A stretch of 64,000 nucleotides of DNA from Amoebidium appalachense (taxonomy: Eukaryota > Protista > Ichthyosporea). The notes below the pieces were generated by a model. That model worked only from the letters and a program-made list of their open reading frames with translations, was not told where the DNA came from and searched no databases. The DNA lies in contig CAVNZM010000013.1 in assembly GCA_963693365.1 (NCBI GenBank), positions 8,122,940 to 8,186,939 of the forward strand, in the 5' to 3' direction. Positions 10,306 to 57,891 of the stretch are shown piece after piece. Every line of letters begins with the position of its first letter. Positions within the stretch are counted from its first letter, which is position 1. Both the position numbers and the translations under genes were made by a program.

Positions 10306-10459
10306 GAGGGAGAGGGAGAGGGGGGGGGGGAGGGGAGACGGAAAGGGAGAGGGAGAGGGAGAGGGAGAGGGAGAGGGGGTGGGAGTGGGAGAGGGAGTGG
10401 GATAGGTATAGGGTGAGGGAGAGGAGAGGGAGGGGGAGAGGGAGAGAGGGAGGGGGGGG

Positions 10460-29407: not shown

Positions 29408-29907
29408 CATCAGCAATCTTGTCGAATCCATCCATAAGCCATCTAAGACGTCAGCATCTAATCAAAGTCATCTACATCCCACCCTTTAACCCTATCTACC
29501 CCATATCCCATCGAAAAGATGTCAGGATATTTTCGGACCATTTAAAGACGACTTTCAAGTTATCATAAAGATGTCTGGATATTTCCTGACATCTTTATAT
29601 ACATTTTTCCTGACATCGTTTTCTACACCTAAACCTAACCACTACCCATCCGTAACCCCCCCCAATCCCCACCTTTTCTACCCCTAAAATATAGGTATCG
29701 TAAGATCCTGCACATCAAGACCCTTTTATGTCATCTTTAAGGCCACTTTAAAGAGCTTAAATAAGAAATTAAGGCAACAAACAGACATCTAAACGATATC
29801 GTTAAAGGGACATCATGTACATTACCTTATTGCAACGAGAGGTGATTTAGAGGTCTTCATGTTGACTTTTCTGCATCTAAAAAGGCACATAAGGAGAACT
29901 AAATGTG

Positions 29908-30571
29908 TGTAAACAACTGTACACATGAACTGTACATGTTTACTAAAGAATGTGATCTACTAGCACACGATTCGTGCTTTGTCATGAATATCACATAAAT
30001 ATTATGTCCGCACCAATAGGACTCACTCTGACCTAAGAATTGAACCATATATGGTTCTTCAGCTGCATACCACATAAACGAAGTGAACCAATAAGAGGTT
30101 TGCATAAATAGGACAAAGGTCTGACTGGCTCGGACCGCACCAGAATCACGAATGGCATGTTGCCACCCGCGCTGGCCGCGGATGAACCAATCCTGGGCCT
30201 TGATCCGAAACCTGGGGGCTATATAAGAAAGCCGTCCCAGTACGGGGATCACATCAGTGAAGTCTGAGACAGACTGAGTCGGCCCATAGTAAAAGCAACC
30301 TGGCCGCGTGTGCCTTTCTACCCGTTCTCTGTCTTTATTTTGATTCAGTTGTACTCTGCCTTATCCTAACTAGTCCAACTGTTTACATTGGCGACCGCGG
30401 CAGGACACTGTTATACATTGCCAACTGTTTACATTGGCGACCGCGGCAGGACACTGTTATACATTGCCAACTGTTTACATTGGCGACCGCGGCAGGACAC
30501 TGTTATACATTGCCAACTGTTTACATTGGCGACCGCGGCAGGACACTGTTATACATTGCCAACTGTTTACA
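29908..30571 (+). mobile_element. Family X single LTR plus 4 tandem PBS/LTR-end units (copy C)
   Basis: LTR at 29908-30387 followed by a 46-bp x4 array. TSD ATGTG at 29903-29907 and 30572-30576 encloses both. Confidence 0.93.
30388..30571 (+). repeat. Perfect 46-bp tandem repeat x4: T + 18-nt tRNA-Arg complement + ACTGTTATACATTG + last 13 nt of the LTR
   Basis: Unit TTGGCGACCGCGGCAGGACACTGTTATACATTGCCAACTGTTTACA starts at 30388, 30434, 30480 and 30526. Confidence 0.95.
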
Positions 30572-31227
30572 ATGTGGCCTTTACAGTATCTCGGGGCATC
30601 GGAATCCTTATTTCACGATTCCTTTATGTCATCAAACGGATCTGTTGCCGACCATACAAAGATACCTTTTGGATCACTCTACATGATCTTTATTTCATGC
30701 ACACCGATTCACGACATACACATGTCACCTTTATGTTTACTTTGTGACAACTTGTGCAGCATAATAAGTCGACAAAACGATCACTACAAGCAATTTAATA
30801 TGATCATTATACTGTATTCTAATCGTCCAAAAATCTATATTAAAGCATCATTTTGTGCCCCGGTTGATGCCCAGATGATGTCAGTTCCCCCCAGTTTCCC
30901 CCCCCCCCCCTCCCCTTCCCTTTCCTCCCCGTGGCTGCACAGTGAAGTGTCGTTGACCGTGCTGAACAATCTTTAATTTCTTATGACACGTCCCACTGGG
31001 AGGTGTCTCCACTCTTTACATCTACGGGATGTCCCACTGGGACACCCCTCTACTGTCTCAACTATTCAAAACATTAAAATTCAAGAAAAGAAACACTATA
31101 AATTTATGAGAAAAAAACAAACTAAACAAAGTAAACAAACTTGCAAAATAAAATCCAAAATAATCCCCTACAAAAAAGGGGCAGTACATTTCTTGGGGGG
31201 AAGGGGGAGGGGGGGGGGGAGGGGGGG

Positions 31228-33436
31228 CTAAGGGGTGAATTTGGGCTTTTTGTGGGGGCTGGCATGACCCTGTTGGCGCCTTCTCTTCTTGGCCGACCTG
31301 GTAAGGGGGGTCTCTGCCTCAGCCTCGTTGAACTCAGCCGGAGAGTCCTCACCTTGAAACTCAGCCGCCTCCTCCTCCACCCCCTCCACCTGCTGCACGG
31401 CCTCGCTGTCACCCTCCGTGCCGCCCACAGCGACATCCTCGCCCTCCTTGCCGACCTTGGCCGCGTCCGTCTCGTTTTCACGTTGGTCCACCTTGGGGTC
31501 TGGGGCCTCCTTGTGCAGAGACGCGGCCTCCTTAGCGGCCTGCTCCTCCCGCTCCCGCTCCGCCAGTGCCTCTGCCTCCCTCTCCGCATCGGCCTCCTCC
31601 TGCTGCCTGCGCAACTCCTCCCCGGCCTCCCGCTCGGCTGTCACCATCTGGTCCTTCACGTAGTTGTCGTAGTTTGAGATGTACTGCAGGTAATGGCGGG
31701 CACAGAGTCAGATGCTTTACAGAAGTCAGTCTAGAAAACTTTTTCCAACGATGTGATTGTGTTGTTTGTGTTTTTTTTTTATGGGGGGGGGGGGGGGGGT
31801 TTGCAGATGTGAACAAAGAAGTCTTTTATAAAACAGAACAGACTAAATGCTAACTAGCTCGAGTGTCGGCACGCTATAGTGTAGTCAGCCATAATCACAC
31901 CATAAGGGGGGGGGGGGGGGGGTAGGAATTATAATGAACTTAGCGTAAGTCTCGTGAGCCATGATGAAACACCCCACAGCTCAAGTGTCAGCATCCTATT
32001 GCCTAGCCAAAAGGGGAGGGGGGGGGGGGGGGGGGACCCACCAACTTGATGTTGCCTTCGGCCGCAGCACCGTCATAGTTGGGGTCGTCACATTCGAATT
32101 TCACGGGGGTCCACTTGTTGATGAGCTTGTGTTGGTTGGGGTCTCGCAGCGACACCTGGAAGCAGTTGACGACCAGCCGGAAGAATGCCCTGTGGTCTCT
32201 GGCGATATCCTGCCCAGTGCTTCTTTAGTGATCTGTTTTCAAAAGAGGTAAAGTTCGGAAGGAATACACATAAGGAAGAGAACAGAAGAGACAGATAATG
32301 TTGTCGTCATATGGTCTTACTGACATCCAATGGATGTCATTAGGATCATATGACGACAACATTATGGCCCTTCATGATGTAAGAATGTGACCGTAATTCT
32401 CTATGATGATGCTTAAAACTGTCTTTATTCTTGAAATATTCCAAGCATTTGCAGACCTAGGAATATGCATCAATTTTTTTTCGATTCGATTCGTGGAATG
32501 TTCATGGTGGAGGGGAGCGCGGGGGGGGGGGGGGGGGGGGGGGGGGGGAAAGAAAGCGTTATGCAAGTAAATATATACGATGAAAGCAAGTTATTTGGGA
32601 AGTTAAACCGGTGATCAGAGGAGAACGTGGAAGGGTGAAAGGGAGTGTGTGTGTGTGTATGTGTGTGTACACACGTGTGTTGGTTGAAGAGCGAGTATGT
32701 GTGAGTGGGTGGTGGGCAGGAGGGAAGGGGGGGGGGGGGGGGGGGGGTCCTTTGATGTAGTCTAGACTCAGAATGTGTTGAAAGTGATTTGTTGGGGACA
32801 TTACATACCAAGGCAGTCTTGTTGCCAAGGACAAGCCGCACAGCCTTCAATGAGATGCTGCTGAACAGGCGGGAAAACGGCTGGTACCCGAACGGGTTGC
32901 CCGTTTCAGGGTCGACAGAGTACACGCGGCCGCACGGCTGGCCATTCAGCTTGACCTCATCCAGGAGGGCCAGCCACAGCGCTGGTCGCTCATCGGCAGT
33001 TGGGGCGTAGGCGACCAGCTGTGAATGTGTGTTTGAATGCAGCAAAAGAAAGGAAACAGAAGCGAGTGGTGGTGAAGCAGGTGGCGGTGGCGTTGTGGGG
33101 GGGGGGGGGGAGGAGGGGGGGGGGGGGGGGGGGTTAGTCCATGATTGTGTATTACAGAAGACTGTCAATAAAATATTATATAAATACAATGAAAAGAAAG
33201 TATTATTACTACATTACTACTTGAAACAGCTACAGATCTCCATCCCTGTACAAATGACGTTAATGGCATACAAGTAGATTAGAACAAAACAGCTACATAT
33301 CTCCATCCCTGTACAAATGACGTTAATGGCATACAAGTAGATTAGAACAAAGTAACCTGTGTGCTAGGATGCGTGTGAGAAGAGTTAAGCCCATTGTCAT
33401 AGAAGGAGTCCGTTGAGTACGGAGGCGGGGGACGCG

Positions 33437-33469
<33 letters not shown>

Positions 33470-34970
33470 AATACATCGAGATTGGTCCCAGGTACAACGT
33501 ACCCAGTCCTCAGGAAGTTGCGGACGTGCTGGTGGACATTGGACTTGATGGAGGTGATGCCCGTGCGGATTTTGGAGATATACTTCTGTGCGGGATCGCT
33601 ACGCACACAGTTGCGGATGATGTGGACCCACTTGGCCACGGCCTCCTGATTCAGCTTCGCGCTTGACGTCTCGACTTTCTGAAGAACCTCGACGAACTTT
33701 CCAGCCAGGTCCCCATCGTGGGCGTTGTTGATCTGGGGTGACTCCAGCACAAGGTGCTGGTAGATGTTGTGGGTCTTGGAGGACTTTTCCACATAGTCAT
33801 TCTGACGGTGATGGAAAATGTTAGAAAACAAGAATGACGATGTGAATAAATCTTGATGGAGCTATAAATCCTCCATGCTGGAAACGTGCTGTAGCAGTTG
33901 CTTTGAAATGACCAAGTTTGAATAGTTCCTTCGGTTTATCCACTTAGACAGAATAAGGGTGTGGATGTAGTAGGGATGGGTTTAGTGCGGGTAGGGGGGG
34001 GATGAATGCATTAGGAGGTGGCAGCATGAGGTGGTGGGATGGCAACAATTCCTCCACAAGGATGAGCTTTGATCACAGAGATTGGTGGGGGGAGGGTTGT
34101 TTGAAACATAACTACTACAATAGGTAAGAGAAACAAAATCAAAACGAAACCAAGGGAGGGATAGGTTGCCTACCAGGAACTGGGTGGTCTCCTGAAAGGA
34201 TAATGTCTCGGGGCGTTTCTTGGAGGGGGAGGGGGTTGGGCGACGGGAAGGGGTGGTAGGGGTGCGGCCCAGCCCAGGCCCAGATGGAGACGGAGGCGGC
34301 TCTGGATCATCAAGCACTGGCAGTCTCGCCTCCTTGCCCAGGAGGGCGCGCAACTGCTCCCTCATGGCGGCGCGACTGTAGGAGCGGATGAGCTTTCGCA
34401 TCCTCTGGGAGGTGTAGGTTGGGTGCTTGCCCGACAACACCAGTGTGTAAAAAAGGACCTCGAGCTGATCCTCGCGGTTGTAGGGGCATTCATCCTCGTC
34501 GTTGAAGTTGTTCTCGTCATCTTCCTGGACTTCTGTGACTGAAGAATAGTAGGACTAATGTTAGTACAATTGTTGGAATCGTAGAAAACTAACAGAAGTG
34601 CGGAAACAGGGCAACCCTGGCAACAGATAGTATTTTCCGGCATGATCCAGATAACTATTGGAGGTCATCATATGACCCAAAACACCACCGAATCCCCCCC
34701 TTTCCCAACCATTTCTACACCAAAAATGATCTATCGTATGGATATCCCCATCAACATATCGTGGGTGAAGGCAGAGGTTTCGAAAACACAAAAGAACTAG
34801 TTGACGTGGACAGGCGAGTGGGGGGAGCGAGTAAACCACACTAGCAGCAGGTGTGTTTAGAAAGAGTGGAGTGGATGAAGGGAGAGTATATAAACGGAGG
34901 GGGAGGGGGGGGGGGGGGGGGGAGGGTTGAATGCAGTCAACAGAACAAAAGTACAAATACAACGGGGAGT

Positions 34971-35029
<59 letters not shown>

Positions 35030-36407
35030 TTGACCAATAGCAACGGGTATGTTTTCCTGTGTAACTGACTGGAATCCCGCTATCATGTTCTCGACACTAG
35101 GCAAGAAGTGTTCCCGACACTCGCACGTGGGATACAGCGCAAGCTGGTCGATCCAGAGAAAAGTTGCGGTGTTCACTGCTAGCGCAATGTTCGGGCCAAC
35201 CTGAAAGCCATAGTGAAGCGCTCCAGGTGTGGTTTGTACCAAGTCGCCGGCGCGCTGTACGACTATGACAGGTGCCAACCCTATGGATGCAAGGTAACGC
35301 GGAGACCGAGGGATAAAATTTTTGTGCTGAATTGGGTTTCTGCACGAGCCTGGCAATTCGTTGCGGGCCAGCTGTAAGAGCCGTTTGTACTGGGAGGGAG
35401 GGTGGATAAACCACACCTTAAGGCCCCACAAAAGAAGGCTTGCTGAGGCCAGCGCGGCATCTTCAATGTGTGCACCAAACACTGTTAAACCCAAGACAGA
35501 CAACTGCGCGTACAACATGGCAACATTGATTCCTGGCATGGTTTCCCCGAAATGATTTCTTCCCAACGGCGTGAAGTCACTGATTGCAGTTACATTGAAA
35601 ACGCGTTCGTCGAATATTTGATCACCATCCACCTCGACATCGGATGCATAGACACCACCAACACCTTCGAGGTTTTCCTCAAACAACTGCGCTATCTGCT
35701 CACTGCTCATTTCACCCAAACCACTAACATCTTGAGGCAACGTTTGACACTTGGAAAGGTCCACGCTGACAGGCTCCCGGCTTATCTCGCACCATGACTC
35801 GGACACGCGAGTTACTGTTTGCCTACACGCTTGCTCTTTTATCTCTTTGGTCGAAAACTGTTCCATCGCATCACGAAAAGGAACAGGAGGTGCAAACCCC
35901 TCTAATAAACAACAGCCCTCCCGTTTCTCTTCAGCACTGTGCAGGGCACGAAGTGCCTTTAAAGCCTTTTCCCTATCCATGAAAGACGAAGCGCAATGTT
36001 GTTTTTATGTTTGAAGATTTTAAAAGTTTTTGATGTTACAGTGAGAAAGCCTAGGTGAAACTGACAACGAGCACACGCGTAACGACTATTTATGCAGCAG
36101 GGGGTGTAAAACACAAAAACAACCCACCTTTCCTCTTCGGCTGCAGCATGGCGAGGGCGGCCGGGGCCGTAACTGAGGTGATGCCTTTGAGGAGAATGCC
36201 GACTGACTGCCCAGTAGGGCTTTCAGCCTTGCTGGGATTCTCCCTGCCCCTACCCCCGGCCTTGCTATCCTTGCCGCCCTTGCCGCCCTTGCCGCCCTTG
36301 CTGGCGGCCACGGGCTCGCTGCAGTCCGAGTCGTCGAACGGCGTCTCAACCTTTTTGCGCTTGGGAAGCTTGGTCGTTGTGGCGCCCATTTTCGCGGTCT
36401 TTGGCAT
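31228..36407 (-). CDS. Multi-exon transposon cargo gene of unknown function (basic N-terminus, acidic coiled-coil and NLS-like C-terminus); exon model approximate
   Basis: GC3-rich coding blocks at about 36407-36129, 34540-34173, 33803-33410, 33019-32810, 32233-32042 and 31685-31228, mostly with AG/GT ends and separated by poly-C introns. The protein ends RSAKKRRRQQGHASPHKKPKFTP. Small frame disruptions are possible. Confidence 0.55.
32295..32365. repeat. 71-bp near-perfect palindrome (hairpin) in an intron
   Basis: 35-bp arms at 32295-32329 and 32331-32365 with a 1-nt spacer and 3 non-Watson-Crick positions. Confidence 0.9.
34937..35980 (-). CDS. JmjC-domain histone lysine demethylase, KDM4/JMJD2-like catalytic core
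   Basis: VYASDV, PGINVAMLY, FGAHIED (HxE), GLKVWF, CRNPIQHK, VVQRAGDLVQTTPGALHYGFQVGPNIALAVNTA and TCEC align by eye with KDM4 motifs, including the Fe triad, the 2-OG Lys/Tyr and the C-H-C-C Zn site. Confidence 0.9.
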
Positions 36408-37829
36408 GGTGGAGACGTGGAAGGCGTAAGCGCGAGACAGAGCGATGACGATATGTGGTCATATGGACCACAAAGATGTGTTATGTGGGGTTTCTGTTGC
36501 AGTTCTGGTTGGGAAATGGATTGCAATCCTATGCCCATGAAAAAAGTTTAATTGGTTGATCATCGCATAAGCTGAAGCCAATCAAACGCGTAACCCAATC
36601 ACAGACGGCGAAAACATATGATATGTTTTCCCCCCACACCTCCTGCAATTTGCTGAGGTTGGACCCTGGTCATCAAGACTTCTTGGCCATAAAATGACAA
36701 TACAATTACAGCAAAACATTCTGCAGAAACCCGATATTCTCACATTTTAAGTGTTTATAAAAAGCCTTAGTTTCAAGTAGAGGCATTTTTTTTCTTGCTT
36801 TGTGTCGACAACATCTTTTATCCGCTTGAAATTTGTCAGCACCCATAATTCTACTATTACAGTACGTTGTATGTGGGGATCACCATCCGTCTTTCCTGTT
36901 TTAACTCGCGCTGAGGCAGAAGTTATAAGAAGCAGACGTGGAAAACTCAGCATAAGAGATCAATGAAATGAACATAAATATTAAATTACCAGACAATTTA
37001 CAGTGCAAATTTTCTAGTAATTTCTAACGTCCATTACGAAAGAAAATAACCAACTTTTGACTTGCACCTGTTTTCCCTGCCGCGCTCAGGTATGTGGGTC
37101 TATCGGATGGGAAGGTGTGGACCTGACATTGAGCTTATCGAGTGGCCGCAGGGAGAATGAGCAATTAATATGATACTATTGGAATATTAATAGTTGAACT
37201 CTTCTGCATTTTTTATTGTTTTTTTGTATTTTTTACACTGTCCACATTTATTGACACTTATATAAGGACCGAACGATTAGGTAGGCTATGCCAGTGGATT
37301 CCCATGTTTACGAAGTGCGCGCGCTGCCTAGAGTGGCCACATGTATGCATGACAGATCACCAATGATATTTGCAACGCACGCAAACCAAACAACATACAG
37401 GTCGTTGAAATCTCCACGGTTGTTCTAATAACACATTCAGCTTGTATATTTACTTTTAAGTTTGTTATTTTTTATGTCAATGAAATATGGGCATGCGCAC
37501 CTAGTAGCATCAGTGTTGGACGAAGCAACGCAGCATGATAGAGTTTATGCCATAGCAGACCAATCGCCGCATTGGAACTATCCGAGTACGTGATAAATGT
37601 CCAATCACCACGATTAGGATTATTGGACATCTTCATGTTGTAGGAAACACCACCTGGGGGTCAACGCGGACTCCACGACATCAGGCAAGGGACATCATGA
37701 TCAACACAACCCATCCACATCCCAGCTGGACGCACACGAGAGATCTATCTGTACTATAAAATATATATGTATATACACTGTTTTGATAAACTTTGTGTAT
37801 GCACGTGATGTGCGGTAAAGCGCGTCAAA

Positions 37830-40119
37830 ATGCCGGGTCCTATACCATGCCCATTATGCCAAGATACGTTTCGAAACCGTGCCGGTATGGTTAGCCACCT
37901 TGTTCATAGGCATAGGTATACACAAGCAGAAATCGATCGTGCGAACGAAGAGAGCGAGGACAGGCTGACACGTGGCCTGCGTGCGGCACGGTCCGAGAAC
38001 CTGGCGCCTGAGTCAGAGAACGATCCTATGGACACTAGTGGAGAAGAAAACGAGGAGGATGCCTGGGAGCCAGACGAACCAGAGGGGGCGGCACATGGGG
38101 AGCTCGAGGACTCGGAAATGGAAGATCCCCACGCGCACCACAATCATATCCCATTCCCAGGCTGCACACACCACCTCACTTTCCTTAGGGACGGGGAGGA
38201 GTATCATGCCCTAAAGGAAAAACTGTTGAAGAGACAGCAGATGCAGCTTGTGGTGGAGGCCGGTAGCGATTCCAATTTAGGGAAATTACGGGGGGTTCCT
38301 GAGGGGCAGAAGGCATACATTCAAAAAGTCAGTGCACTCACGGAGGAGCTACGGAAAGACCCATACTACCCGTTCGCGAGCAAACCCGAGGTAAGCTGAA
38401 CAAGGCGCCCCCCCCCCCCCCCCCCCCTTCCAACCCCCCCCCCCCCCCCCCCCCCCCGGATCCGAGCCCCCCCCCCCCCCCTCACACACACACACACACA
38501 CACACACCTCCATCCCCCCCCCCCCCCCCCCCTGCCCTCCCTACCGTGACTGTACCATGAAAACCCGCATATGAAACCCGCAAGGTATTATGCGTGTGAA
38601 CCACACTGAAAGCTAGAGCGATGCACCGTGACATGCACATTTTGACATCCATGTGCTCTCCCCTTGTTTACACTGTCTGTACATGTGCAGGCTGATTTGG
38701 CCGAGTTCTTCCACGAGAACAAGACCTCGAATGCAGCCGCTGACCGCCTCCTGGGGATCATGGGAGAGCACGCCAGTGACATCCCCAACCCTCTTCCCAA
38801 GAAGGTCAAGCACATTCATGACAAGATAGACAATCTACTCCCGGCCTGGTAAGCTGTTTTACATCTGCATGCCAACCGCGTGGGTAGATCGGGTAGATCT
38901 TGATCCGCTCAGGCTATACTATAAAAGTAATGTTTAAGCTCTAGCCATTCGTCGATCTACTAGATCAGATCCATTTAGGTATGTCATTGGCGGATCTATA
39001 CAATTATCTAACCTCCACATTCCAATTAGATCCACGCAGGAACTTCAACGCCTAAAACTTTGTGCCTGCGTACGATCTTCCCGGTTTCTGCACATGCCTA
39101 ATTTAAAAATCGAACCTAACACAATATGCACACAGGAATTCTCGCGCTTGAGCGTGGATCTTGACATGCAAAACCCCTCGACGTCATGTATAGGGACATT
39201 GGAGACTGCATCCAACGCGTGCTCCTTCATCCCTCTCTAGGCCGCGAGGGCGGCATCACCTACAAAACGGAATTCCCAGTGGACGGGCTTGGGCGCCGGG
39301 TGTACAAGGACAACATGGATGGAGACTGGGCATTGAGGGAAGAATTGCAAATACCGGTCGGGGGCACTCTTATGTCTCTGATCATATACTCAGATCAGAC
39401 ACAACTGACGCAGTTTGCCGGCAAAAAGGCGTATCCGGTGTACGTGTCGTTGGGGAACATCAACAAGGACGTGAGGTCTGGCGATTGGTGCAGGTATGTT
39501 AAGCAACTCAGATCCCCAACGTTGTACTGGCGTGTTACTATGCATGCACCGTGCATGTACTATAAATGAAGCAATAACATCCCCATGTATACCTCCGGGA
39601 TGGAGATACTCATGATCACGCGTGCGCATGCATAGCGCGCAGCTGTGACCGGGGGGAGAGGGGAAGGGGGGGGGGGGGAGGGGGGGGGAGGGGGGAGGGG
39701 GGGGGGGGGGAGGGGGGGGGGGGGGGGGCTCACAAAAATGTATGAAGTATGTCGAGCATATGTATGTACGGTATGTACTAATACTAACCTGGTGATTGCA
39801 TGCATATGCATGCTAATGCAGGCTACCGGTTGCATACATCACAGAGCTGGAGTTCAAGGACAAGGCTTCAGAGGGCATCAAAACCAAGGCCCGGCTGAAG
39901 CTGTTCCACCACGTTCTGGACATGGTCGTCGGGGGAGCCCCTGCGGGAGATGAATGAGCGGGGTCGGTGGATGTTCTGTGGAAGTGACCACAGATGGCGG
40001 CTTTTCTACCCACGAGTGTCGTACTACATCACTGATTGGCCGGAGGGGCGCAAAGTGACCTATACCAGGTGCTCTTCCCACTCACACACACACACGCGCG
40101 CGCGCGCGCGCGTACACGT

Positions 40120-40177
<58 letters not shown>

Positions 40178-41223
40178 CACGTGTGCTTTTACCTCACATA
40201 TTTAGTGAATAAAATGATATGTTTCTGATGCTTTTATGTGCTCCATATCTACCCCACGAAGGCACATAATGTTGTCAGAAATCCAGTACTTTTACCAAAA
40301 CCATAGACTTCTTTCGTTGTAACTAATACCAAGTAACCTTTTCAGGAGTGGTACCACTACTTCGAGCCCTTGCCATCAGTGTTGGGAGAGTGACGAAACC
40401 CTGTATAGGGTTTGGGAGCCGGCCGACCTGAAAACAGAAGAGTCGGTGGCGCTGATTTACGAGAAAGTCGCTGAGCTGCGCGCAACCGGGCAATCGGCAG
40501 TAGCGACCGCTCTACTGAAGCGGGCCTCGCTTCAGGATTTCACGGACAATGCATGCCGTGGTTTCCCTGGCTTCAAATGGCTGTGGGGTGTCCCTGTCGA
40601 ACGCATGCACCAAGCCGACAGTGGTGTATACAAGCAGATGCTCGTCGAATACAAACTATACGTGAAGTACGTGTGCGAACAGCGACATGGTGGGGCCTGT
40701 CAGGCCGCCGACGCGGAGGCCAAGGATCTTATCCGGGAGTTTGATCGCCAATTCAACGACATCCCACGTTTTCACGGACTCAGACACTTCACCGGATCGG
40801 TGTCTGACTTGACCTTCCTCCGTGCCAACGAGTACAGAGACATCATGAAGGTACAGAGACTAAGCCCCCCCCCCCCCCCCCCCCCCATGTTTCATATCCC
40901 CCCCCCCCTCCCCCCCCCCCCCCCCCCCCCCCCCCCCAAAACCCTAACCCCCTTGAAGCCAAGCAAGGGTTATAAAGCAGAACCCTAATCACATTCCACC
41001 TTAACGCAGGTCATGCCTTTCGTGGTCCGTGACCTACTTCCAGACGCTTCGGCAAACATCAAAGCCGAGAAGGTTTTCGTTGGTTGGAATGAATGGTACA
41101 TGGCCGTCACCAAGAAGGAATATACGGATGATGCACTCGAGAAGATAACCGAGTTGTACAAGAGGTATGGTTATGAGTTCGTTAATACATTTTATTTTGT
41201 AATTTTCTTTTTTCCCTTTTTTT

Positions 41224-41270
<47 letters not shown>

Positions 41271-41737
41271 AAGGTTATCAGTAACACGAGCATTACAGGT
41301 TTGCACAGGATACATACAACTGCTTTTATATTTTCGGGATACCGTTACTTATTGTCCCCTTTTCTTTTTTGTTGGGGTGGTGGGGGGGGGAAGGGGGGGA
41401 GGGGGGAGGAGGATGGTTATCTAACACGCGTGTTTAAGGTTTGCCCAGGATGCATACGACTGCTTCAAGGACTCCTCCAAGAATGGCCTACGCACTTCCA
41501 AGTTTCATTTCGGTGGCCATTACGCAGACAACTACCGTCTCTTCGGCCCTGTTGAGACAGCTGAGAGCTGGGAGCGCGCACACAAGTACTACTGCAAAAT
41601 ACCGTATCGCTCGACAAACAAGAACTCCACATTCACGCTGCAGGTCAGTGGATATATAGGTGTCCGTGCCCGTGTCTTGTGTGTGTGCATATGTGACGGT
41701 GTGTACAGTCTGTTGTGTGTGTATGTGTGTGTATGTT

Positions 41738-41833
<96 letters not shown>

Positions 41834-44800: not shown

Positions 44801-45550
44801 GGACACCAGCACCATATATGGTAAACGTAGCGAGTAATTGGTTTTTGAGGTTGTGTCTACCCTGCAGGTATAAAGATCAAGAGCCACCCGGGCCTCGATA
44901 AGACCGGTCTGCTGTGGTCTACCCTGGACAAGTTCTTTGTTCCCCCTGGCCAGGAGTTTGTGCCAAGCCCCTTCCTGGGCTCGGACCGCAGCAAGTGCCT
45001 CAAGTATCTGCCATTACAGACGCAGCTGCACCTGGCTTCCGTGTCCGAAGCACAGGCCCGCAACGTTGACCGTCATACACTGCCTGTTCCACTGGGCTGC
45101 AAGGTGAAGGTGTACAACAGCTGCTACATCAGGCTGGGAGTGCCGGATGAGAGGGTGTGGCATAGAGTGGTGGCGTGTGACCAGTTCTACGGGCGGCGTG
45201 ACCGGTACGACGACATCGTGATCCAGGGTCAGGACGGAGTTTGGTACGCACGGACGGTGCTCCTATTTACGTGCGAGACGGAGGAATGCGCTGAGGATGG
45301 CCAACCGGGGGCGTCGGAAAAGGTCTTGCACCAGCTTGCCTTTGTACGGTACTACACCGAGGTGGAGGTGGATCCCCTCACAGGGTGCAAGAAACTCCAA
45401 GTGGAAATGACAGGGACGGGTGCCCGGAGGAGGCCCAGATACGACGTCATCGACGTGGAATCCATACTGGGGACTTTCCACTGTATCCCCATGTATGCAC
45501 AAGACGGGGTGCAGAAGAAGTTCCTGGTTAACCGGTTCGTGAATATGTAG
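37830..45550 (+). CDS. Plavaka-type transposase, multi-exon, with N-terminal C2H2 finger and C-terminal BAH-like region
   Basis: Exons at about 37830-38390, 38691-38848, 39137-39494, 39821-40068, 40347-40850, 41010-41164, 41439-41643, 41923-42175 and 44869-45550. Motifs CPLC..HLVHRH, IYSDQTQL..KAYPVYVSLGNI, ITDWPEG, ERMHQADSGVYK, IPRFHGLRHF and SKFHFGGHY..WERAHK..PYRSTNK. Possible small frameshifts near 39170 and 39950. Confidence 0.88.
42321..44600. repeat. Tandem satellite, about 375-bp unit x6 plus a partial unit, inside the last transposase intron
   Basis: GTGGGCCAAG unit starts at 42321, 42696, 43069, 43447, 43822, 44201 and 44573. Units are highly similar. Confidence 0.95.
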
Positions 45551-45768
45551 AGGTAGCAATGGGTGAGGCTATGGGGTTTACGCTGTTTACTCGAGGCAAA
45601 GAGAACCAGTCTCAGGTATGGGGGGGGGGGGTTTGCTCGGAATATCCCCTCAGCGGTATATCATGATCACGTACATAGATGTCGGGTGGTGACTATATAT
45701 CAGGGTTTACTTTCTCTACGAGACACCATAAAGACTACAAGGAGAAATCAATTAGTTGGGGTTCCCCT

Positions 45769-45860
<92 letters not shown>

Positions 45861-45949
45861 TATTTTTTTATTTTATTTTTATTTTTTTATTTTTTTTTTT
45901 TATTTTTTTTTTTTAAGGGGCTCCCCTCGGGACACTCGGTATCAGCTGG

Positions 45950-46004
<55 letters not shown>

Positions 46005-46025
46005 GTGTGTGTGTGTGCGCGTGCG

Positions 46026-49000
46026 CTATAATTTTGTAGTGATGTGTTTCTCAAGCCAATCAATACATCTAATAAACAGGTCGTAGTTACGCGTGTTTAG
46101 TATAAAATCAAGGATGTTGTAATTTACAGGTAGGCTATCTTTCTGGGTGTCTGTTGTGAATGTGACGTGTGTGTGTTGCGGTATTATGTGGTCTATCAAA
46201 CTACATTTGGCGATACATGACCGGTTAAACTGGTGTGTGTGTGTGTTGTTTGGGCATGCAAATGATGCCACCTTATACTTATTAGATCTCCACTGTATAG
46301 CACGTGTACAGTAAAAGCGTGGTAATTGATCAATAATACCATCAGCTAGAGAAAGACCAGTTCTACAGGAAGGTAATATGTATTTAGGTGTTATACACTT
46401 GCGAGTGCCATATTTGGCAATATGGTTGAGGCGGTCAGTATATATAAAACGAGACATAAGGCTTAGTTTTTCAAGGTGTATGCTTTCATCGGGTCTAGTG
46501 TCGTGTGGTATCTTTTTCCATTTGTTATATTGCGTGATTATCTTGTGATTGTGTACATGTTTAATAAGTAAGTGGCAGTCCAAAGTCACACACACACTAT
46601 TGCGGGGTTTATTTGTATTTGTGCCCAGGGGAGAAGGGGAGAGAGAGGGGAGGAAAGAGGGGAGAGGTGAGGAGGGGACAGGTCGGATAGAGAAGAGAGG
46701 GTGGGAGGGCAAATACTTCTTTAAGCGGCTTATGTGCTTATTGAATTTCAGCGCGAGATAGGATACTCTAGCAGCTATTGGGACCAGACCATATATCGAG
46801 AGCGTTACAGGCCCAGGTTTACAACAGTTGTTAGATAGAAAGGAGGCAACTTCTGCTTCAAGGAAATTTGCCAAGGGTTTAAGCGCTCTAGTTCTCTCTT
46901 TCTTGATCCAAGCGGCGAGAAGGGGTAAACCATATTCACATGCCGGGAAGACAAAAGTGCGAATAAATGTAAGTCTAATAGAAGGATGGAGGGGTGTGTC
47001 TTTAAAAATATTAGCCGAGAAGAAAGCTAACCGCTTACGAGCCAACTCTACCCTCTTTTCGACCATATGGGGAAACATAACACCAACAGAATCAACCGGA
47101 ACACCAAGATATTTGTATTCTGGAACTATAGGTACAGGTTTAGATGATAATGTAAATGTGTGTAAATTGTTAGCTATATCAGGTACAAGAACACCACATT
47201 TGTCTATGTTAAGGATCATAAGGTTTGCCTTGCACCACTCTGACACTACATCGAACAATCTTTGCAGGCGTCTAGGGGTACGGGCAAGGAGGGACAGATC
47301 ATCAGCATAGAGAAGTGCAGGCGGAAAGTTATTAATAGGGTCATCGTTTTCGGCGTAAATCTTGACAGCCAAATCATCTATAAATAGGTTAAACAAAAAG
47401 GGGCTAAGCAATGAACCCTGCAAGAGACCTCTAGTACGAGCAAAACCATATGAAAGATGCCCATTAACCACAGCTCTACCATAGGTTTGAGACAAGAGTG
47501 CTTCTAACAGAACACCAATGCAGTGTGGTACACCCCGTGCAGCAAGCTTTTCCCATAGGAGACCAGGGGAGACAGAATCGTAAGCAGTTTTCCAATCAAT
47601 AAAGCCAACATATTGTGCACCAACTTGCATAGAATCGTGCAGTGCCATTATTTGAACATAACATGAATTGTTTTTACGAAAAGCGGATTGGCATGGGTGT
47701 ATGTGAAGAATAGATTGAAACCTAGGGTGATGTGCAAATAACCTAAGTAAGCAAGCTTCAAAGAATCTACGAACAACCTGGGTTAGTGTAATGGGGCGAA
47801 AGGATGATATGGGGCCCTCAGAGTCCTTCTTAACTATGGGGATCACTAAGGTATCTAACCAAGATGACGGGACATGTCCACATTTAACACACCAAGAAAA
47901 GAGAGAGCTTAACATGATAGTAAGATCAGGTTTAATAGCACGATCACTTTCCTTTTGTGGGTAGGAGGGAACAAGGATTTTAAGATACCCAGCAGGGAGT
48001 CCATCAGGTCCACAAGACTTACTAGAGCTATAACTAGATATCACAGACCATATGGCATCGGGACTGAAAAAGGGGAGGATCGATTCTATGGGGATAGATG
48101 GGTCTACAGGCCACACAATAGGTTTCTGAGCGGGGGTCCTATCTTTAAACAGTTCCGAGAAATACTTATCAGAGTCTATGAGGGGGTCTCCAGTGGTATC
48201 ACCAATAATACGAGCAGGGGGTCCAAATCGATTCATACTAGCAAGCCGGCGCAAGCTTTCCTTTTGAGACAGGGGTTCACCTAGTCTAGCGGGAGTGGTG
48301 TTTGGTAACAAGAGAGCATCGGGATATTCCTTCCTACCACCGCCAGCATAATCACCGAGATCTATCAAATCATCAACAATAAAGTTAGTGCATGTATCTA
48401 GTACGAGATGTGAATCTGGCCTGGCTTGTGCAGATTCTAATAGGCGCATATATATAGGGTGTTTCGTAGCATAGCATACACATACATCAACTCTACCCCA
48501 CTGTGACTTAAGCTGGGATAGACGGAGGCGAAAGGTGGGAGGGGGAGGGGGGAGCAGATCAAGGGAGATCTTAGGTAGGAAAAGGATAGGAGAGTGGTCA
48601 GATGACCTAGAGAGGTTAGGAGGGAGAGAGAGTTTTGACATGGTTGATGGCCAAAAGGCCACTCCCCAGTCGGTGTTGTGGGCATGGGATATTTGAGGGA
48701 ACCGCAAAGTGTGACTTTGGACATACCTTGCTAAAGGGATAGCACGCTCCGGGGGCTTAGATGGGTACCCGACACTCACTTGCAGTGTGTCTGTGTGGTG
48801 GAGTCGCGTGTTAAAATCACCTAAAATAACAGTGGACATTGGTAACTGTGACAACTCGTGAGTCAATTCGACAACCGACATAGATGGTGGGTAATATACA
48901 AAAGTAAAAACATTAGAAAGAAACTCTATAGAAACCGAGAATTCCGTTTTTGCTACCGGTTTGCACTTCACTCTCACGTGTGGTGCGGCAAGTACAATAA

Positions 49001-49219
49001 TGCCTCGGTTTTTCGCGTAACCGGGGTGTGTGGATGTGTCGACCAATGTAGAGTTGAATTTGTGGTGGTTTTTAAACTGTGTTTCGCAAATCACTGTAAA
49101 CGTGTGGTTGTTTGTCTGTTGTTGTATGTAGCTGATTTTATCGTCGAGTGTCCCGGGGGGAGGCCCTTTTGGGGGCCCAGTGTCCGAGCATTCCAGAAGA
49201 AGAAGGATAAATTAGGCAT
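46026..49219 (-). CDS. LINE ORF2: AP endonuclease plus reverse transcriptase
   Basis: MPNLSFFFWNAR start at 49219 overlaps the ORF1 stop, with a 1-nt frameshift in the C-run near 49155. Motifs ICET, ILGDFN, SDHSPI, GPDG, FRPITL, QGSLLSP, LYADD and YKYLGV. Confidence 0.92.
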
Positions 49220-50396
49220 CGGTTTGGTCCGACACCTGTGGGGTTGGTTCCCACTTGTCGCTTACGGGGTCGTATGCACGACCTTCCGCCAGCGCGAACA
49301 GTTCGCAGAAGAGCTCGATTTCCATCTCGCATCGGCGTTTGCGCTCGAGCAGTTTCTCACCAGAAAACATTGGTTCCTTCGTGTCCGTGTCTATCACGCT
49401 CGTAGCATCGTTTTCCAACTTTGCGAGGAACTCTTTTGCCTTGCTGATGCGTACACGACAACGTGTGGCGCACGCATTCTTAGCAGACACTTTACGTTCT
49501 TTGTCTGCTTTCTGAATGTTTTCCGGCGCGCATGGGTCGTAGCTTGGGAGGTGGGTGAAGAAGCTTCCACACCCCTTTGTCGCGTCACGGATGAACGCAC
49601 GGTTATAGTCGCCCCGTACTGCTACTTCCAGCACATCGTATCCAAAGAAGGACAGACAAAGGATGCGAGAGCACCGGAAGCCGAGAGCCTTGAAGATGGA
49701 CCACATGGCCCTGTGTGGGCGTCTGCCGTGCTTGACTTTGAAATACACCCTCTCGTATTTGGGTGGGATGTTGATGTTACCGTTTGCTTGGGTGTTCCCC
49801 TTAGCCGGCGGTTTGGGAGGGGAGTTGCGGCGGTACTCGTTGCCTGCAAGAATGCTGGCATATGTTTCCTTGGCAATTTGGCGGAGCTCGGGTGTTTTAC
49901 GAGAGTTCGCATATTCTAGGAACTCTGCCGGGAGCTGTGCTTCCGGTCCTGTGTTGTTTTGTGTTGGGGTGGAAATGTCTCCGTCGCGAGATGTTTGCTC
50001 ATGAGTTTTGGGGTTTTGCGATCCACTAATGTTTAGCTGGGCTGTGAGTGAATCAATGGTGAGCTTGAGTTGGGTATTTTCTGTTTGGAGTTTTTCTATC
50101 ATGTTCTTGAGTGGTAACAGCTCATTTAGCTGTTTCTTAACGAGGGCAAGTTCTGCCAGTACTGTATCAACCGAAAGTTTCGGCATGGTTGTTATTGTGT
50201 TTCTACGGAGTGGTGTGGTGTTATTCTGAATGGGTAGTGTATTGTAAATAGGTGTTGCGCTTAGTCTAAGGCGATGTTTTTCTGGTTGTGCATCTGTGGT
50301 AGGTGTATCTGCTGGACGTTTTAATGGTCGCACATGTGTGATGGGTGTAGATGGAACTTTGAAAGAGGTTCTGAAACGATTATAGGCATGTGCCAT
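49212..50396 (-). CDS. LINE ORF1 protein (coiled-coil, basic), 394 aa
   Basis: Intact ORF directly upstream of ORF2 with a heptad-like stretch (LAELALVKKQLNEL..IEKLQTENTQLKLTIDSLTAQL). Confidence 0.8.
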   Translation of the reverse strand: MAHAYNRFRTSFKVPSTPITHVRPLKRPADTPTTDAQPEKHRLRLSATPIYNTLPIQNNTTPLRRNTITTMPKLSVDTVLAELALVKKQLNELLPLKNMIEKLQTENTQLKLTIDSLTAQLNISGSQNPKTHEQTSRDGDISTPTQNNTGPEAQLPAEFLEYANSRKTPELRQIAKETYASILAGNEYRRNSPPKPPAKGNTQANGNINIPPKYERVYFKVKHGRRPHRAMWSIFKALGFRCSRILCLSFFGYDVLEVAVRGDYNRAFIRDATKGCGSFFTHLPSYDPCAPENIQKADKERKVSAKNACATRCRVRISKAKEFLAKLENDATSVIDTDTKEPMFSGEKLLERKRRCEMEIELFCELFALAEGRAYDPVSDKWEPTPQVSDQTDA

Positions 50397-51539
50397 GACA
50401 TGGATGGGGGTGTTCCCCGGCCCTTAGGGCCACGGATGGCCTGGTTTAGGGGTGGATGCGCGAAGGATACTATTTATTAGCAGATAATAAAGAGCGACAT
50501 TTGAATCGATGTGTGCGACTGAGGCTATGCAAATTGTCGTACCCTTAAAAGATGCCTTTATGGGGACTTGTAGACTACATTTTCCTTTTTTCCCATCTCG
50601 ATCACCCCCACATCCGAACCTTTCGGATATCTTTATGAGATCTGTTTGACAATATGTTGATGTCTGAATCGAGTGCATAATTTTTGTTTTCGGCTTGGAT
50701 TCACTTAATAATGCCAATCGTTGCCGCATCTATATGTATCTGTGGACCCTGTAGTGGCCACATCAGCTAACAAATAACGGAAAGGGTTGTGGCCATTAGT
50801 ATATCTAGTAACAATGCTGACAGTTACCGTAAGCCTGCCCGCCCACATGGGCCCGTATGGACAACTAAATGACGACTTAGTGGCGGGTTTATGATGTCTC
50901 GGACGATGGAATTTGTGCACGCGCACGTGCACCAAGTCTGTGACACAAGGGTGTTGCTCCTCTGCCATATCTGATACGACTTCTTTCATGAATCATTCAT
51001 TTATGCAACAATATTATTATCTGTTATAAATTATATCAAAATATATCTTTACAACCAAGGTTGTTGGTAATTATCTACACTAGCCATATGGGTGGAATGG
51101 CTGGCTCCCTTCATTTGCACGCCTCTGTCTGGCAACCTTTAAATGAATAATATAGGCGTGTTTTATCAAAGTATTACTTTTATAAATCTTATAATTTTCA
51201 GCTGTTAATTCCTGAGCCAGTTCTACCACATTAAAGCGTGATCAAAATCAATTTTGCGGTCTCCCGGCAAGGATGGTGGTCTGCTTTGCACGCCTCCAGA
51301 AAAATTATGTGATCCAATCACATGACGCGAAATCCTATCTCTCAAATCCGTGAATATTCATTGGCTTTCATTCCACGCCGCGCACCGCCCGGAGCGGCGC
51401 GCGGCGCGCGGAGTCGATCACACTGTGGAAACAATATCATCAGTCAGTCAGTCAGTAGGTTTGCATATGCTCACGGCCACACATGCACAGTAGCTTTTTG
51501 CTGCCTGGCATACTGCTATCCACCAATGATTGAACAAAA

Positions 51540-52703
51540 ATGGCGGCCCGAAACGTTGCTGTAAATGCACCCGCACATGCTGTTACACAGGGCTCACCAT
51601 TTACCTCAGAAATGGTGACTGCATACGTTAACTTTTACGTTGAACACCATGGTGAATACGTGGCATGTGACGAGGGTTCTAGGCACCCCGCGGGCTTCTG
51701 CGCCCTGTGTAATAAACAGGGCATCCGTGTTCTCTCTCAACACCTTATTGACGCCCACCGAGATACAATTCGCCATTACACTGGCTACGAAATAGGCATG
51801 CTGCTGCAGACCCATCGCGTTCCTAAGGCTGAGCATGCACTAGTGTGGGCCGTGAGCGATGATTCAGAATATGAACGCGCTACATGGATTGCTTACCGCA
51901 AGCGAAAAAACCAGACTGCATACCGCAAAACCGACAAGGGGAGGCGTACAAACCGCAGTCTACAACTGCTGAAACGGCAAGTGCTCAACGCCTGGGCCTT
52001 CCACACTGGCGCCATGGACGGTATTGGCGGGAACATAACACAGCGTATGGCCGTCGATACATACCGAATGGTCAGGGATGCTCATTTGGCAGCACAGACA
52101 GACATCTCCGCTTCGTTGAACGATGCCCAACAACGATTTATCACTGCATTCGCCGACCATATGGTTAGGCTCGCAAATATTGCCGTCCTTAACCGCGACA
52201 CGTCGGCGGCTGTACGACAACTCATGGTGCCAGGGGCCTGTAATTTTACATGGGAGGAAGATAAAGTTGTGGAGATATCCTTTATTGAAGTGCGTGGTTG
52301 GCACCTTCTCCACTTCGCTACAGGCCAAAAGTACTACACGCGGATAAAAATGGAAACTGTGCTGCCCAACATTAACGCCGAGATTGACTGGTCGCACCCG
52401 GACACAAAAGCCGAGGTAAACAGGGTGTTTCAAAAAAACCTGAAAGACAGGGAGCAACAGTTGTGGACGGCAATCTACCAATATATCACAGTCAGAGCCG
52501 CCAGTGGGAATTTCCGTTATAGCGACCCAATAGACATGGGAGAATACCTCCCTGGGCTAGTTGCAGAGATGGGCGCTTCAATGGACGACATAGAGCTTCC
52601 CTCATACCTTGCCGTGTGTGGCTTCGATGAGGAAGCACAAGAGTTGTTTCTCGGACAGGCTGGGCCAGACCCAGACGAGGAGATGGGCGAAGACGCAGAG
52701 TAA
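51540..52703 (+). CDS. Hypothetical 387-aa cargo protein with a C2H2-like finger and basic helix
   Basis: Intronless intact ORF with FCALCNKQGIRVLSQHLIDAH, YRKRKNQTAYRKTDKGRRTNR and an acidic tail. Lies inside the TIRs. Confidence 0.75.
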   Translation: MAARNVAVNAPAHAVTQGSPFTSEMVTAYVNFYVEHHGEYVACDEGSRHPAGFCALCNKQGIRVLSQHLIDAHRDTIRHYTGYEIGMLLQTHRVPKAEHALVWAVSDDSEYERATWIAYRKRKNQTAYRKTDKGRRTNRSLQLLKRQVLNAWAFHTGAMDGIGGNITQRMAVDTYRMVRDAHLAAQTDISASLNDAQQRFITAFADHMVRLANIAVLNRDTSAAVRQLMVPGACNFTWEEDKVVEISFIEVRGWHLLHFATGQKYYTRIKMETVLPNINAEIDWSHPDTKAEVNRVFQKNLKDREQQLWTAIYQYITVRAASGNFRYSDPIDMGEYLPGLVAEMGASMDDIELPSYLAVCGFDEEAQELFLGQAGPDPDEEMGEDAE

Positions 52704-52819
52704 ATTTTCTGTTTGTTGATGAGTGGGGGTGTAGGGGGTTTGGTTTTCACGTGTGTCAGTAGCCTGTAACATATAGGCGCTGTGCCGATGTCAGAATTTT
52801 AAGTGGACTGCAACCCAAC

Positions 52820-54470
52820 CTTTTAGGTATATATTGACATCCAAATAGTATAGGTTTACTACGAAAAAGATATCAGAACGTATCGTTATAGCATCTTTAC
52901 ATTCTCCTGCTGATATCATTATATACATGTTGACATCCAAATGGTATAAGTTTATGGCTAAAAAGATATCAGAACTTATCAAAATAGCATCTTTACATTC
53001 ACCTGATGTCCATCTTGCGATGCTTAAAAGTGCACGGAATCGATCTAGCCTGGGTCCAAAAGATGCCTCGAACCCATCCCAGGAATCTCATGATGACCAT
53101 CCAAAACACATCAAAGGGACAATTGCAAGACACCATAATGTGCATATATAGATTCATCTTCAGACAACTAACGGCTCCTGAAAAGTGCATACAAGGACCA
53201 CTTAAAGACCCTAGAGAGATGCTGTGGACTCCATTCTAGTATGAGAATTGCATCCAGCAACATTATAGCATCTATATATGCCTATCATGTGCACCGGGTA
53301 ATCCACAAACCATCTATGACGTCGTGGATGTGGACCATCGCAAAGATCACATAGAGACCCTAACTAGATATCATAAAGTGCACATGCTGTGCCTAGAACA
53401 GGGATAAATCAGGAATGATGATATAATATGCACCAGAAATACACTTAGACATCTGAGGGTACCTAGGGGGTACATATGGATGGGTAAAGGATAGGATATT
53501 CAGAGATCTGTAATACCACATCATCAACACCATAGGTCCACATGTAGATGCCTTCAAGTGCACGGAATCGATCGAGCCAGGGTCAAAAAGATGTCACAAA
53601 CCCATCCCAGAAACCTCATGATGACCATCCGAAAGGCATCTAAAAGACCACGTAAAGGCCATATAAGATGCAAATATGGTTTTCCCTCATGACAACTAAA
53701 TGTTCCTAAAAGGTTCATTAACAGACCACTTAAAGACGTCAAAAAGATGCTGTATACCAGGAATAGCGTCCAGCAACATTAAAGCAACCATATATGCCTA
53801 TCATGTGCACCACCCAATCCACATACCATCTATGACGTCGTGGATGAGGTCCATCTACAAAAGCACATAAAGACACTTTGTCGATCATTAAAAGTGCATA
53901 TGTTGTGCATATAACAGCGAAAAAACAATATGGATCGTATAAAATGCACTAAAACTAGTCTTGGACATCATAGGGGACTTAGGGGGTAGAAATGGATGGG
54001 AAGAAAATATGATCATATAAAGTGGTCCATATAATGTCTATGTGCACCGGAAATAAACTAGAAGTACACTTGGACGTCCTGGAGTACGTAGGGTGTACTT
54101 TGGGATGGGTACAAGAAAAGAGCATTTAATGTGGTCTTTAGATGGTCCATCTCACCACCCAAACCCCACCAAAATGTGTTTGGAAAATTTTGAACATCGG
54201 GGCATTTAATATGCATTTAGGATGGGTTGTAGATCAGTTCATGACACCATAGTAGATGCCTTGCGGTGCTGTTCTGGATGATGGATGATATCAAGTCCCC
54301 TTTATCCCCTCCTGGACATCATAGATGAGTTATGGATAGTGGCCATCCAAATTGTTTACGACCCCCACATCCCATCTAGATGTCATCATGTAGGTAGGTT
54401 GTGGTGGATGTGTGGGGTGGATATGGTGGGAGGACCCCCAAAAGGTGTCCTGGATGGGATCCGGATCGCC
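52820..54470. repeat. Degenerate subterminal direct repeats of the giant transposon
   Basis: Duplication with about 100-bp period near 52830 and 52930, and one with about 530-bp period (AAGTGCACGGAATCGATC at about 53028 and 53556). Similar GACATC/GATGTC-rich sequence at the left end, 29430-29900. Confidence 0.7.
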
Positions 54471-54487
54471 GAACAAGATTGCTGATG

Positions 54488-54709
54488 TGTGACAATCAGT
54501 CCACCATTGCTCTGGTCCACTCCAACACCATCAAGCACCGGACCAAGCACATTGCCGTTCGTTACTTCAACACAAAGGACTACATCAACAGTGGGGACGT
54601 CACTGTCACCTACATCGACACCAAGAAGAACCTGGCCGACATCTTCACCAAGCCTCTGGCTGGTCCGGCCCACGACACACACCGTGCCAACCTCAGTCTC
54701 CGTGACTGA
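54488..54709 (+). pseudogene. copia-2 RNase H C-terminal remainder
   Basis: CDNQSTIAL..HRTKHIAVRY..LADIFTKPL..LSLRD* continues the frame interrupted at 29407. Confidence 0.93.
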
Positions 54710-55537: not shown

Positions 55538-55581
<44 letters not shown>

Positions 55582-57890: not shown

Positions 57891-57891
57891 G

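Follow-up and report, generated by a model that had tools for sequence, protein, structure and literature searches.

In the stretch of DNA analysed here, 64,000 nucleotides of the ichthyosporean Amoebidium appalachense (contig CAVNZM010000013.1; the whole stretch is called the window and positions are counted from its first letter), we found a precisely bounded copy of a PlavakaB-type DNA transposon, 25,080 bp long (29408..54487), which carries intact KDM4-type cargo in an unexpected position. The cargo is a KDM4-like JmjN/JmjC reading frame (34937..35980, minus strand), which lies inside the first intron of another gene of the element, referred to as open reading frame B (ORF-B; 31228..36407, minus strand). 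The reading that we favour, with a probability slightly below one half (roughly 0.48), is that the transposon family keeps the JmjC protein as a working accessory enzyme, either fused to ORF-B or made alongside it, and that this enzyme reduces repressive histone methylation, allowing the copies of the family to be transcribed.

The transposon sits within the pol gene of a copia element (24140..56337, plus strand; long terminal repeats, LTRs, at 24140-25051 and 55422-56337). Its two ends form a perfect 15-bp terminal inverted repeat (TIR; left 29408..29422, right 54473..54487, both in plus-strand coordinates), with the dinucleotide TG bordering the element on each side (29406-29407 and 54488-54489). 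When the element and one TG were excised in silico, the copia reading frame was restored (...PVYCDNQSTIAL...). A scan of the window for the TIR returned the two element ends and one site with three mismatches, with no further matches. Among 24 listed runs, eleven, which carry three organism labels, contain at least half of the sequence words sampled. Contigs of four runs (X1, X6, X9 and X16) were compared with the window over positions 29150-41700. X1 and X6 are DNA-type runs; X9 and X16 come from one study, are recorded as 'DNA?', and their RNA content was judged by spliced joints only. Of the 2314 contig joints 15 are listed, and our statements about joints concern the listed ones. No ranking of isoforms or genes and no estimate of copy number was based on contig depth, and the lack of X16 cover over the bins of the JmjC frame and of the 5' part of the transposase gene was not taken as evidence. 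In run X1 one contig leads from position 29407 directly to the sequence beyond the element, and thus represents an empty site with a single TG. The exact ends and the TG duplication that had been proposed from the sequence alone were borne out by the perfect repeat, by the codon that rejoins on removal and by this empty site. It could be argued that there is no mobile unit at all, and that we are looking at chance repeats or at a join made during long-read assembly; the right end, known as a sequence match, would leave some room for this. The perfect TIR, the PlavakaB-type ends, the 2-bp duplication, the rejoining codon, the X1 empty site and the internal transposase gene speak against such an artefact, which we consider very improbable and already largely refuted.

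Over 917 aligned columns the LTRs of the host copia show 98.8% identity, with 6 substitutions and 3 indels. Because the transposon inserted into this copia, it should be younger than the divergence of the copia LTRs, and a recent insertion, as had been deduced earlier from the near identity of the LTRs, is supported by the sequence. The native length of the element is about 19.8 kb, provided that the long interspersed nuclear element (LINE) which it contains begins near 50420; this agrees with the earlier estimate of about 19.7 kb.

According to the definition given in the text of Kojima 2025 (PMC12730594), PlavakaB elements have 5'-CATCA..TGATG-3' termini and 2-3 bp target duplications. The CATCA…TGATG termini of our element are of this type, and the TG duplication has a length within this range. 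The transposase gene (37830..45550, plus strand) was predicted by splice signals to have nine exons. Its product has a C2H2-like N-terminus and contains the Plavaka domain PF18759 (Pfam E 3.8e-21, 76 bits against a cut-off of 26.3) as well as a second, weak Plavaka stretch, in agreement with the Plavaka/CMC transposase assigned to this strand in the sequence-only reading. The YSD, TD, CxxC, HxxxH and E motifs of PlavakaB transposases could be found by eye in the exon translations. Among the contig joints listed none bridges a transposase intron. The satellite noticed in the element earlier is an array of 6.1 copies of a 374-bp unit (42319..44599), located within the last predicted transposase intron.

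Several contigs point to further copies of the element. One X6 contig begins exactly at the left TIR (29408), and an X9 contig spans 29407-29901 and continues beyond 29407 with 27 letters that are absent from the window. A joint in X6 connects 29901 directly to 30571, so the X6 contig lacks an LTR insertion that is present in the window copy. X1 and X6 cover all 30 bins, including the left end, ORF-B, the JmjC frame and the transposase exons. At many positions the contigs of X1, X6 and X9 agree with one another against the window, and this holds for all three at four of the five listed JmjC sites. To judge from their sequences, the contigs fit a family with several insertion sites, all copies of which would carry JmjC, and the element is likely a copy of a multi-copy PlavakaB family in Amoebidium. 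Strain differences could account for part of the differences between the contigs and the window.

The comparison with the family contigs revealed three frame-changing differences in the transposase gene of the window. Near 38839 the window is one base short relative to contigs of X1, X6 and X16, near 39170 it is seven bases short relative to contigs of X1, X6, X16 and X9, and near 39931 it has one extra base relative to X1 and X6 contigs. The reading frames of the window transposase shift near 39170 and 39931. Two of the three differences sit in homopolymers, where assembly errors are possible; for the 7-base difference such an error is less likely. The window copy is therefore likely, on its sequence, to be non-autonomous, and with its own transposase broken it would need enzyme from other copies to move again. 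The idea of a 'self-contained' system, which was part of the sequence-only reading, does not fit this copy.

The protein encoded by the JmjC frame resembles KDM4 enzymes in sequence and in predicted fold. Its JmjC domain was recognized by Pfam with an E value of 2.8e-14, above the curated cut-off, and its closest relatives of solved structure are KDM4C, D, B and A (E 1e-17 to 4e-15), followed by the weaker matches Rph1 (8e-11) and KDM5 (1e-7 or weaker). The AlphaFold model, built on a 74-sequence alignment, had a mean confidence score (pLDDT) of 86.5, and all 37 matches listed by Foldseek for this model were KDM4 structures, with a template modelling (TM) score of about 0.70 and 22-25% identity. 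Residue roles were assigned through the KDM4A numbering. The iron ligands of the H-x-E...H triad are all kept (H171, E173, H256), as are the C-H-C-C zinc site (C213, H219, C286, C288) and the 2-oxoglutarate (2OG) residues Y111, K188 and K220; the 2OG-binding Asn is replaced by Ser at position 181, a change found in 14 of 143 aligned sequences. The methyl-lysine pocket is mostly kept (D114, G150, Y157, D174, S179, A268, N270). The differences listed in this frame for X1, X6 and X9 include no gap and no stop. On the basis of the sequence and the model the JmjC protein is likely an active KDM4-type enzyme, and the earlier assignment to the KDM4-like proteins was confirmed by the Pfam match, the solved relatives, the fold and the intact iron and zinc ligands. 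Pfam detected no PHD or Tudor reader domain in the JmjC frame or in the ORF-B exons.

Among 1.84 billion representatives the nearest relative of the JmjC protein was the Logan protein P0002, which is 39% identical, has kept all iron and zinc ligands and has a basic, low-complexity stretch upstream. In a midpoint-rooted FastTree tree of 143 sequences, from which the tandem-repeat artefacts P0001 and P0007 and sequences shorter than 170 aa had been dropped, the only supported groupings were that of the query with P0002 (0.93) and of these two with P0003 (0.77). A word-index search with the JmjC protein gave no relative among 3478 candidates, and locus searches in metagenome contigs gave none among 226 and 241 candidates. 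Viral contigs yielded no convincing JmjC relative: two weak loci among 7 candidates, then none among 76. The two weak loci (31% identity over 56 aa) were taken as chance matches. None of the 19 JmjC matches that were checked by name was labelled as JmjC of an Amoebidium giant endogenous viral element (GEVE). Three of the matches, P0004, P0005 and P0009, are KDM4-like JmjC proteins of small size in which zinc-finger-like motifs are visible by eye at the C-terminus; one of them is from the thrips Frankliniella, and they possibly represent other mobile JmjC lineages. P0001, from Bemisia tabaci, contains about 15 JmjC half-domains in tandem and is either a tandem gene array or an annotation artefact.

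ORF-B has six exons (36407-36128, 34538-34174, 33801-~33475, 33018-32809, 32209-32042 and 31683-31228). Its open frame encodes about 581-601 aa from the ATG at 36407, the length depending on the donor of intron 3. The protein has a basic N-terminus, an acidic C-terminus and ends that resemble nuclear localization signals (NLS). Joints of the CT..AC type, i.e. minus-strand GT-AG introns, were seen at 31683/32042, 32208/32808 and 33801/34174 in both X9 and X16, and at 34538/36128, corresponding to intron 1, in X9 only. Thus, four of the five introns are bridged in X9 and three of the five in X16; the third intron is predicted. Intron 1 (34539-36127) encloses the whole JmjC frame, which is on the same strand, consequently one spliced form of ORF-B omits JmjC. 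The sequence-only reading, which listed a JmjC gene and a multi-exon gene on the minus strand, was right about the strand; it is the separate JmjC gene that does not hold, since the frame lies within an intron and contigs support a splice form without it. No ORF-B exon had a Pfam match above the cut-off or could be assigned to a known family, and exon 3 had no Atlas match and no relative among 59 candidates in a search of longer proteins. Three further observations concern this gene. In one X16 contig ORF-B meets a stop at about 31275, close to its end, and has letters unlike those of X9; thus there are at least two ORF-B variants in the runs of that study. Intron 4 contains a 71-bp near-perfect palindrome (32295-32365), possibly an excision footprint or a tiny miniature inverted-repeat transposable element (MITE), and intron 3 contains a 63-bp tandem duplication (33224-33351).

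The position of the JmjC frame suggests a way in which it could be expressed. Without a splice the frame reads through a run of 57 C bases. Several introns of the element start with GT followed by a C run, and the GT after 35035 is alike, resembling donors 3 and 5 of ORF-B. It is in phase 1, the phase required by ORF-B exon 2, and its use would join JmjC in frame onto ORF-B exons 2-6, giving an open frame of 823 aa. The two nearest relatives, P0002 and P0003, each have, 16-26 residues past the zinc motif, a tripeptide that a phase-1 donor (GT(A)(A/T)GT) could encode, and both end soon after it; such a tripeptide was found in 6 of 130 matches. An unspliced X9 contig (35057-36127) covers almost all of the JmjC frame. 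Splicing of exon 1 straight into the JmjC frame was also considered and rejected: all of the seven in-frame AG sites are within the JmjN/JmjC coding region, and they are unbridged by the listed joints.

In the mechanism that we propose, the JmjC frame in intron 1 would serve as an alternative coding exon at the 5' end, and a JmjC-ORF-B fusion would be translated from the ATG at 35980, which follows the short exon-1 frame. The predicted substrate of this protein is repressive H3K9 or H3K36 methylation, whose removal could help the family to escape silencing. A number of observations weigh against this proposal. No JmjC-to-ORF-B joint is found among the 15 listed, and the X9 contig over JmjC may represent an isoform, pre-mRNA, read-through or DNA; as X9 also covers non-coding parts, DNA or non-mature RNA could be its source. 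The phase of the donor is by itself a weak argument, because three of the ten GT sites near the end of JmjC are in phase 1, i.e. the chance is one in three, and the donor-like tripeptides were chosen post hoc and from protein sequence only. In the intron-retaining form the frame of exon 1 ends in a stop at 36090, and the JmjC ATG is preceded by three others, the first at 36407, an arrangement unfavourable to translation. The protein is only about 24% identical to KDM4A and, in KDM4A numbering, has Ser for N198, Met for Y175 and Pro for E169, and on account of this identity and these changes its substrate is unreadable from the sequence. No targeting domain was found. The five listed JmjC variants are two silent and three conservative changes, a number too small for selection to be demonstrated. 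Finally, in the text of PMC11244446 it is 5mC that is shown to be a silencing mark in Amoebidium, while a role of H3K9me3 was proposed and not measured.

Some of the same facts would be expected if the JmjC frame were a passenger, that is, a KDM4-like gene captured from a giant-virus insertion or a host paralog, spliced out and without use, whose active site is intact because the capture was recent. The contig-supported splice form does remove JmjC, and upstream ATGs and a stop lie ahead of it. As KDM4-like genes, JmjC-only and multi-exon, occur in 39% of the giant-virus insertions of Amoebidium (Sarre et al. 2024, text of PMC11244446), raw material for such a capture is plentiful. The relationship to P0002 speaks against a useless recent acquisition: the two proteins are only 39% identical, yet all iron and zinc ligands are kept and the exon layout seems to be shared. 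Moreover, the listed JmjC differences in X1, X6 and X9 contain no gap or stop, in contrast to the three breaks in the transposase of the window. We regard the passenger explanation as unlikely, although it is the strongest of the rivals.

The enzyme may also be active and do another job. It could act genome-wide or at target sites, by making heterochromatin accessible to insertion or by reducing H3K36 methylation and gene-body methylation, or it could demethylate a non-histone lysine, for example in the basic tail of ORF-B. That no DNA- or chromatin-binding domain was found in any of the cargo and that the peptide-contact residues differ from those of KDM4 would agree with such a role, as would the insertion of the window copy amid nested LTR elements; the text of PMC11244446 itself suggests that loss of H3K9me3 and integration may be connected. 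Genome-wide demethylation would, on the other hand, be costly to the host. In addition, the satellite in the transposase intron and the repeated subterminal motifs resemble, by analogy, the arrangement of the targets of VANC, the anti-silencing protein of VANDAL transposons, which are often in tandem repeats, introns included (text of PMC5735166). We think a different job rather improbable, somewhat more so than the passenger explanation. Our preferred reading, a demethylase that serves the transcription of the family's own copies, can be extended in a speculative direction. One promoter might drive two alternative products, ORF-B by itself and a KDM4-ORF-B fusion, the latter being guided by ORF-B to the repeats of the element, which would make this splice-switched demethylase a histone-level counterpart of VANC, and Plavaka might perhaps also act as a shuttle of KDM4 genes between the Amoebidium genome and giant viruses. 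We consider this extension a long shot, about as doubtful as a different job of the enzyme.

It is useful to compare the element with known systems. The PlavakaB families of Agaricales that carry TET/JBP genes (CMCT clade; text of PMC12730594) share with it the CATCA..TGATG ends, the 2-bp duplication, a transposase with C(2)C and H(3-4)H motifs and an epigenetic 2OG dioxygenase as cargo. In those the cargo is TET/JBP, whereas here it is a KDM4-like JmjC protein, the host is an ichthyosporean and the enzyme is encoded within an intron of a second cargo gene; the word 'jmjc' does not occur in the main text of PMC12730594. The giant Plavaka elements of the red alga Bostrychia (17-19 kb, accessory genes PAG1-3; text of bioRxiv 10.1101/2025.02.11.637652) are similar in having three accessory genes, internal tandem repeats and enzymes of chromatin type whose proposed target is the element itself. 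Their accessory genes encode a methylase-SET protein and a ParB-2OG oxygenase, whose Pfam domains were not matched in our element, and 'jmjc' does not occur in that text either.

The closest parallel in the same genus is provided by the KDM4-like genes of Amoebidium GEVEs (text of PMC11244446), which likewise have no PHD or Tudor domain, are carried by mobile DNA, are reactivated on loss of 5mC and were proposed to counteract silencing. The carriers described there are giant-virus insertions; our JmjC frame, in contrast, sits in a transposon bounded by TIRs, in which Pfam detected no viral gene. The same text describes the Plavaka-flanked giant repeats of Amoebidium as intron-poor clusters rich in tyrosine recombinases; it mentions neither JmjC nor TIRs for them, and the supplement text does not link them to KDM4-like genes, although figures S4C and S6C may bear on this point. 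The mention, in the sequence-only reading, of JmjC genes in Amoebidium giant repeats was thus correct as to JmjC on mobile DNA in Amoebidium and not as to its placement, which according to PMC11244446 is in giant-virus insertions. KDM4A-D (JMJD2) and yeast Rph1 have the same JmjN-JmjC fold, HxE...H iron triad and C-H-C-C zinc site; the protein described here differs from them by its low identity (about 24%), the lack of PHD and Tudor domains, several peptide-contact changes and the possible fusion to ORF-B.

VANDAL transposons are Mutator-like. As in our element, an accessory protein, VANC, is encoded by the transposon and intronic tandem repeats are possible targets; VANC acts on DNA methylation and its function was demonstrated, whereas our system is known from sequence (text of PMC5735166, in which the word 'demethylase' does not occur). 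A literature search found no report of a KDM4 or JmjC gene in a Plavaka or another TIR element, within a coverage that excluded most subscription papers and Repbase. Transposon counter-silencing has been shown for VANC and proposed for TET/JBP; in both cases it concerns DNA methylation. A delimited and recently mobile element with an intact KDM4 gene offers a direct test case for counter-silencing at the histone level, in a host which is a culturable animal relative with published methylation-inhibitor data. The element is also a second, non-viral carrier of KDM4-like genes, whose origin was left open by Sarre et al.

The remaining part of the element contains an orphan ORF, two secondary insertions and a repeat-rich right end. 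The orphan ORF (51540..52703, plus strand) is intronless and encodes 387 aa. Its sole homolog is a protein from the Amoebidium parasiticum transcriptome, 52% identical over 213 aa; it had no Pfam or Atlas match, and the best hit of a PDB sequence search had an E value of 1.7. The C2H2-like motif behind its earlier description as zinc-finger-like is visible by eye and was not supported by Pfam. We found no chromatin-type domain in ORF-B or in the orphan ORF, thus the 'other chromatin-type cargo' of the sequence-only reading did not stand up; for these two genes the label is based only on charge and NLS-like ends. Pfam identified no viral family, and no hallmark gene of a GEVE, among the element ORFs scanned.

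The LTR-derived insertion (29907..30570, plus strand), which is missing from the X6 family contig, consists of an LTR, a primer-binding-like site and a 46-bp x 4.3 array, and is flanked by a 5-bp duplication. The units of the array (30375-30571) are 100% identical and each comprise the LTR end, the primer-binding-like site and another 15 bases; the insertion terminates on an LTR end at the 5-bp duplication, and it may have arisen by repeated template switching. The LINE (45770..50423, minus strand; 5' end approximate) lies 3' of the transposase gene and has ORF1, ORF2 with a reverse transcriptase domain (Pfam) and a poly-A tail. It is presumed to be a secondary insertion; a search for its target duplication found none. 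The right subterminal region (52828..54487) contains two imperfect direct repeats and short motifs in common with the left end. The motif CATCTA occurs 6 times in the left and 11 times in the right subterminal region, compared with 24 times in the other 60.6 kb, which is an approximately 15-fold higher density for motifs that were picked post hoc. In CACTA-like elements dense subterminal motifs are expected as binding sites of the transposase or of an accessory protein.

The surroundings of the element are a nest of young insertions. The window contains six copies of an approximately 490-bp LTR which are 94-99.6% identical (10451-10939, 13988-14476, 17081-17573, 20146-20630, 29907-30387 and 58782-59266). 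Two pairs of them flank elements of about 3.5-4 kb, which are in opposite orientation, have no long ORF and might be non-autonomous LTR elements. A second copia, on the minus strand, has 706-bp LTRs (14559-15264 and 22935-23640) that are 99.6% identical, and is interrupted by an LTR element. Outside the transposon and the host copia, degenerate tyrosine-recombinase-like frames were found at 57293-58824 (plus strand; Phage_int_SAM_1, E 4e-4, below the cut-off). They are broken by a copy of the 490-bp LTR and are reminiscent of the recombinases in the published Plavaka giant repeats.

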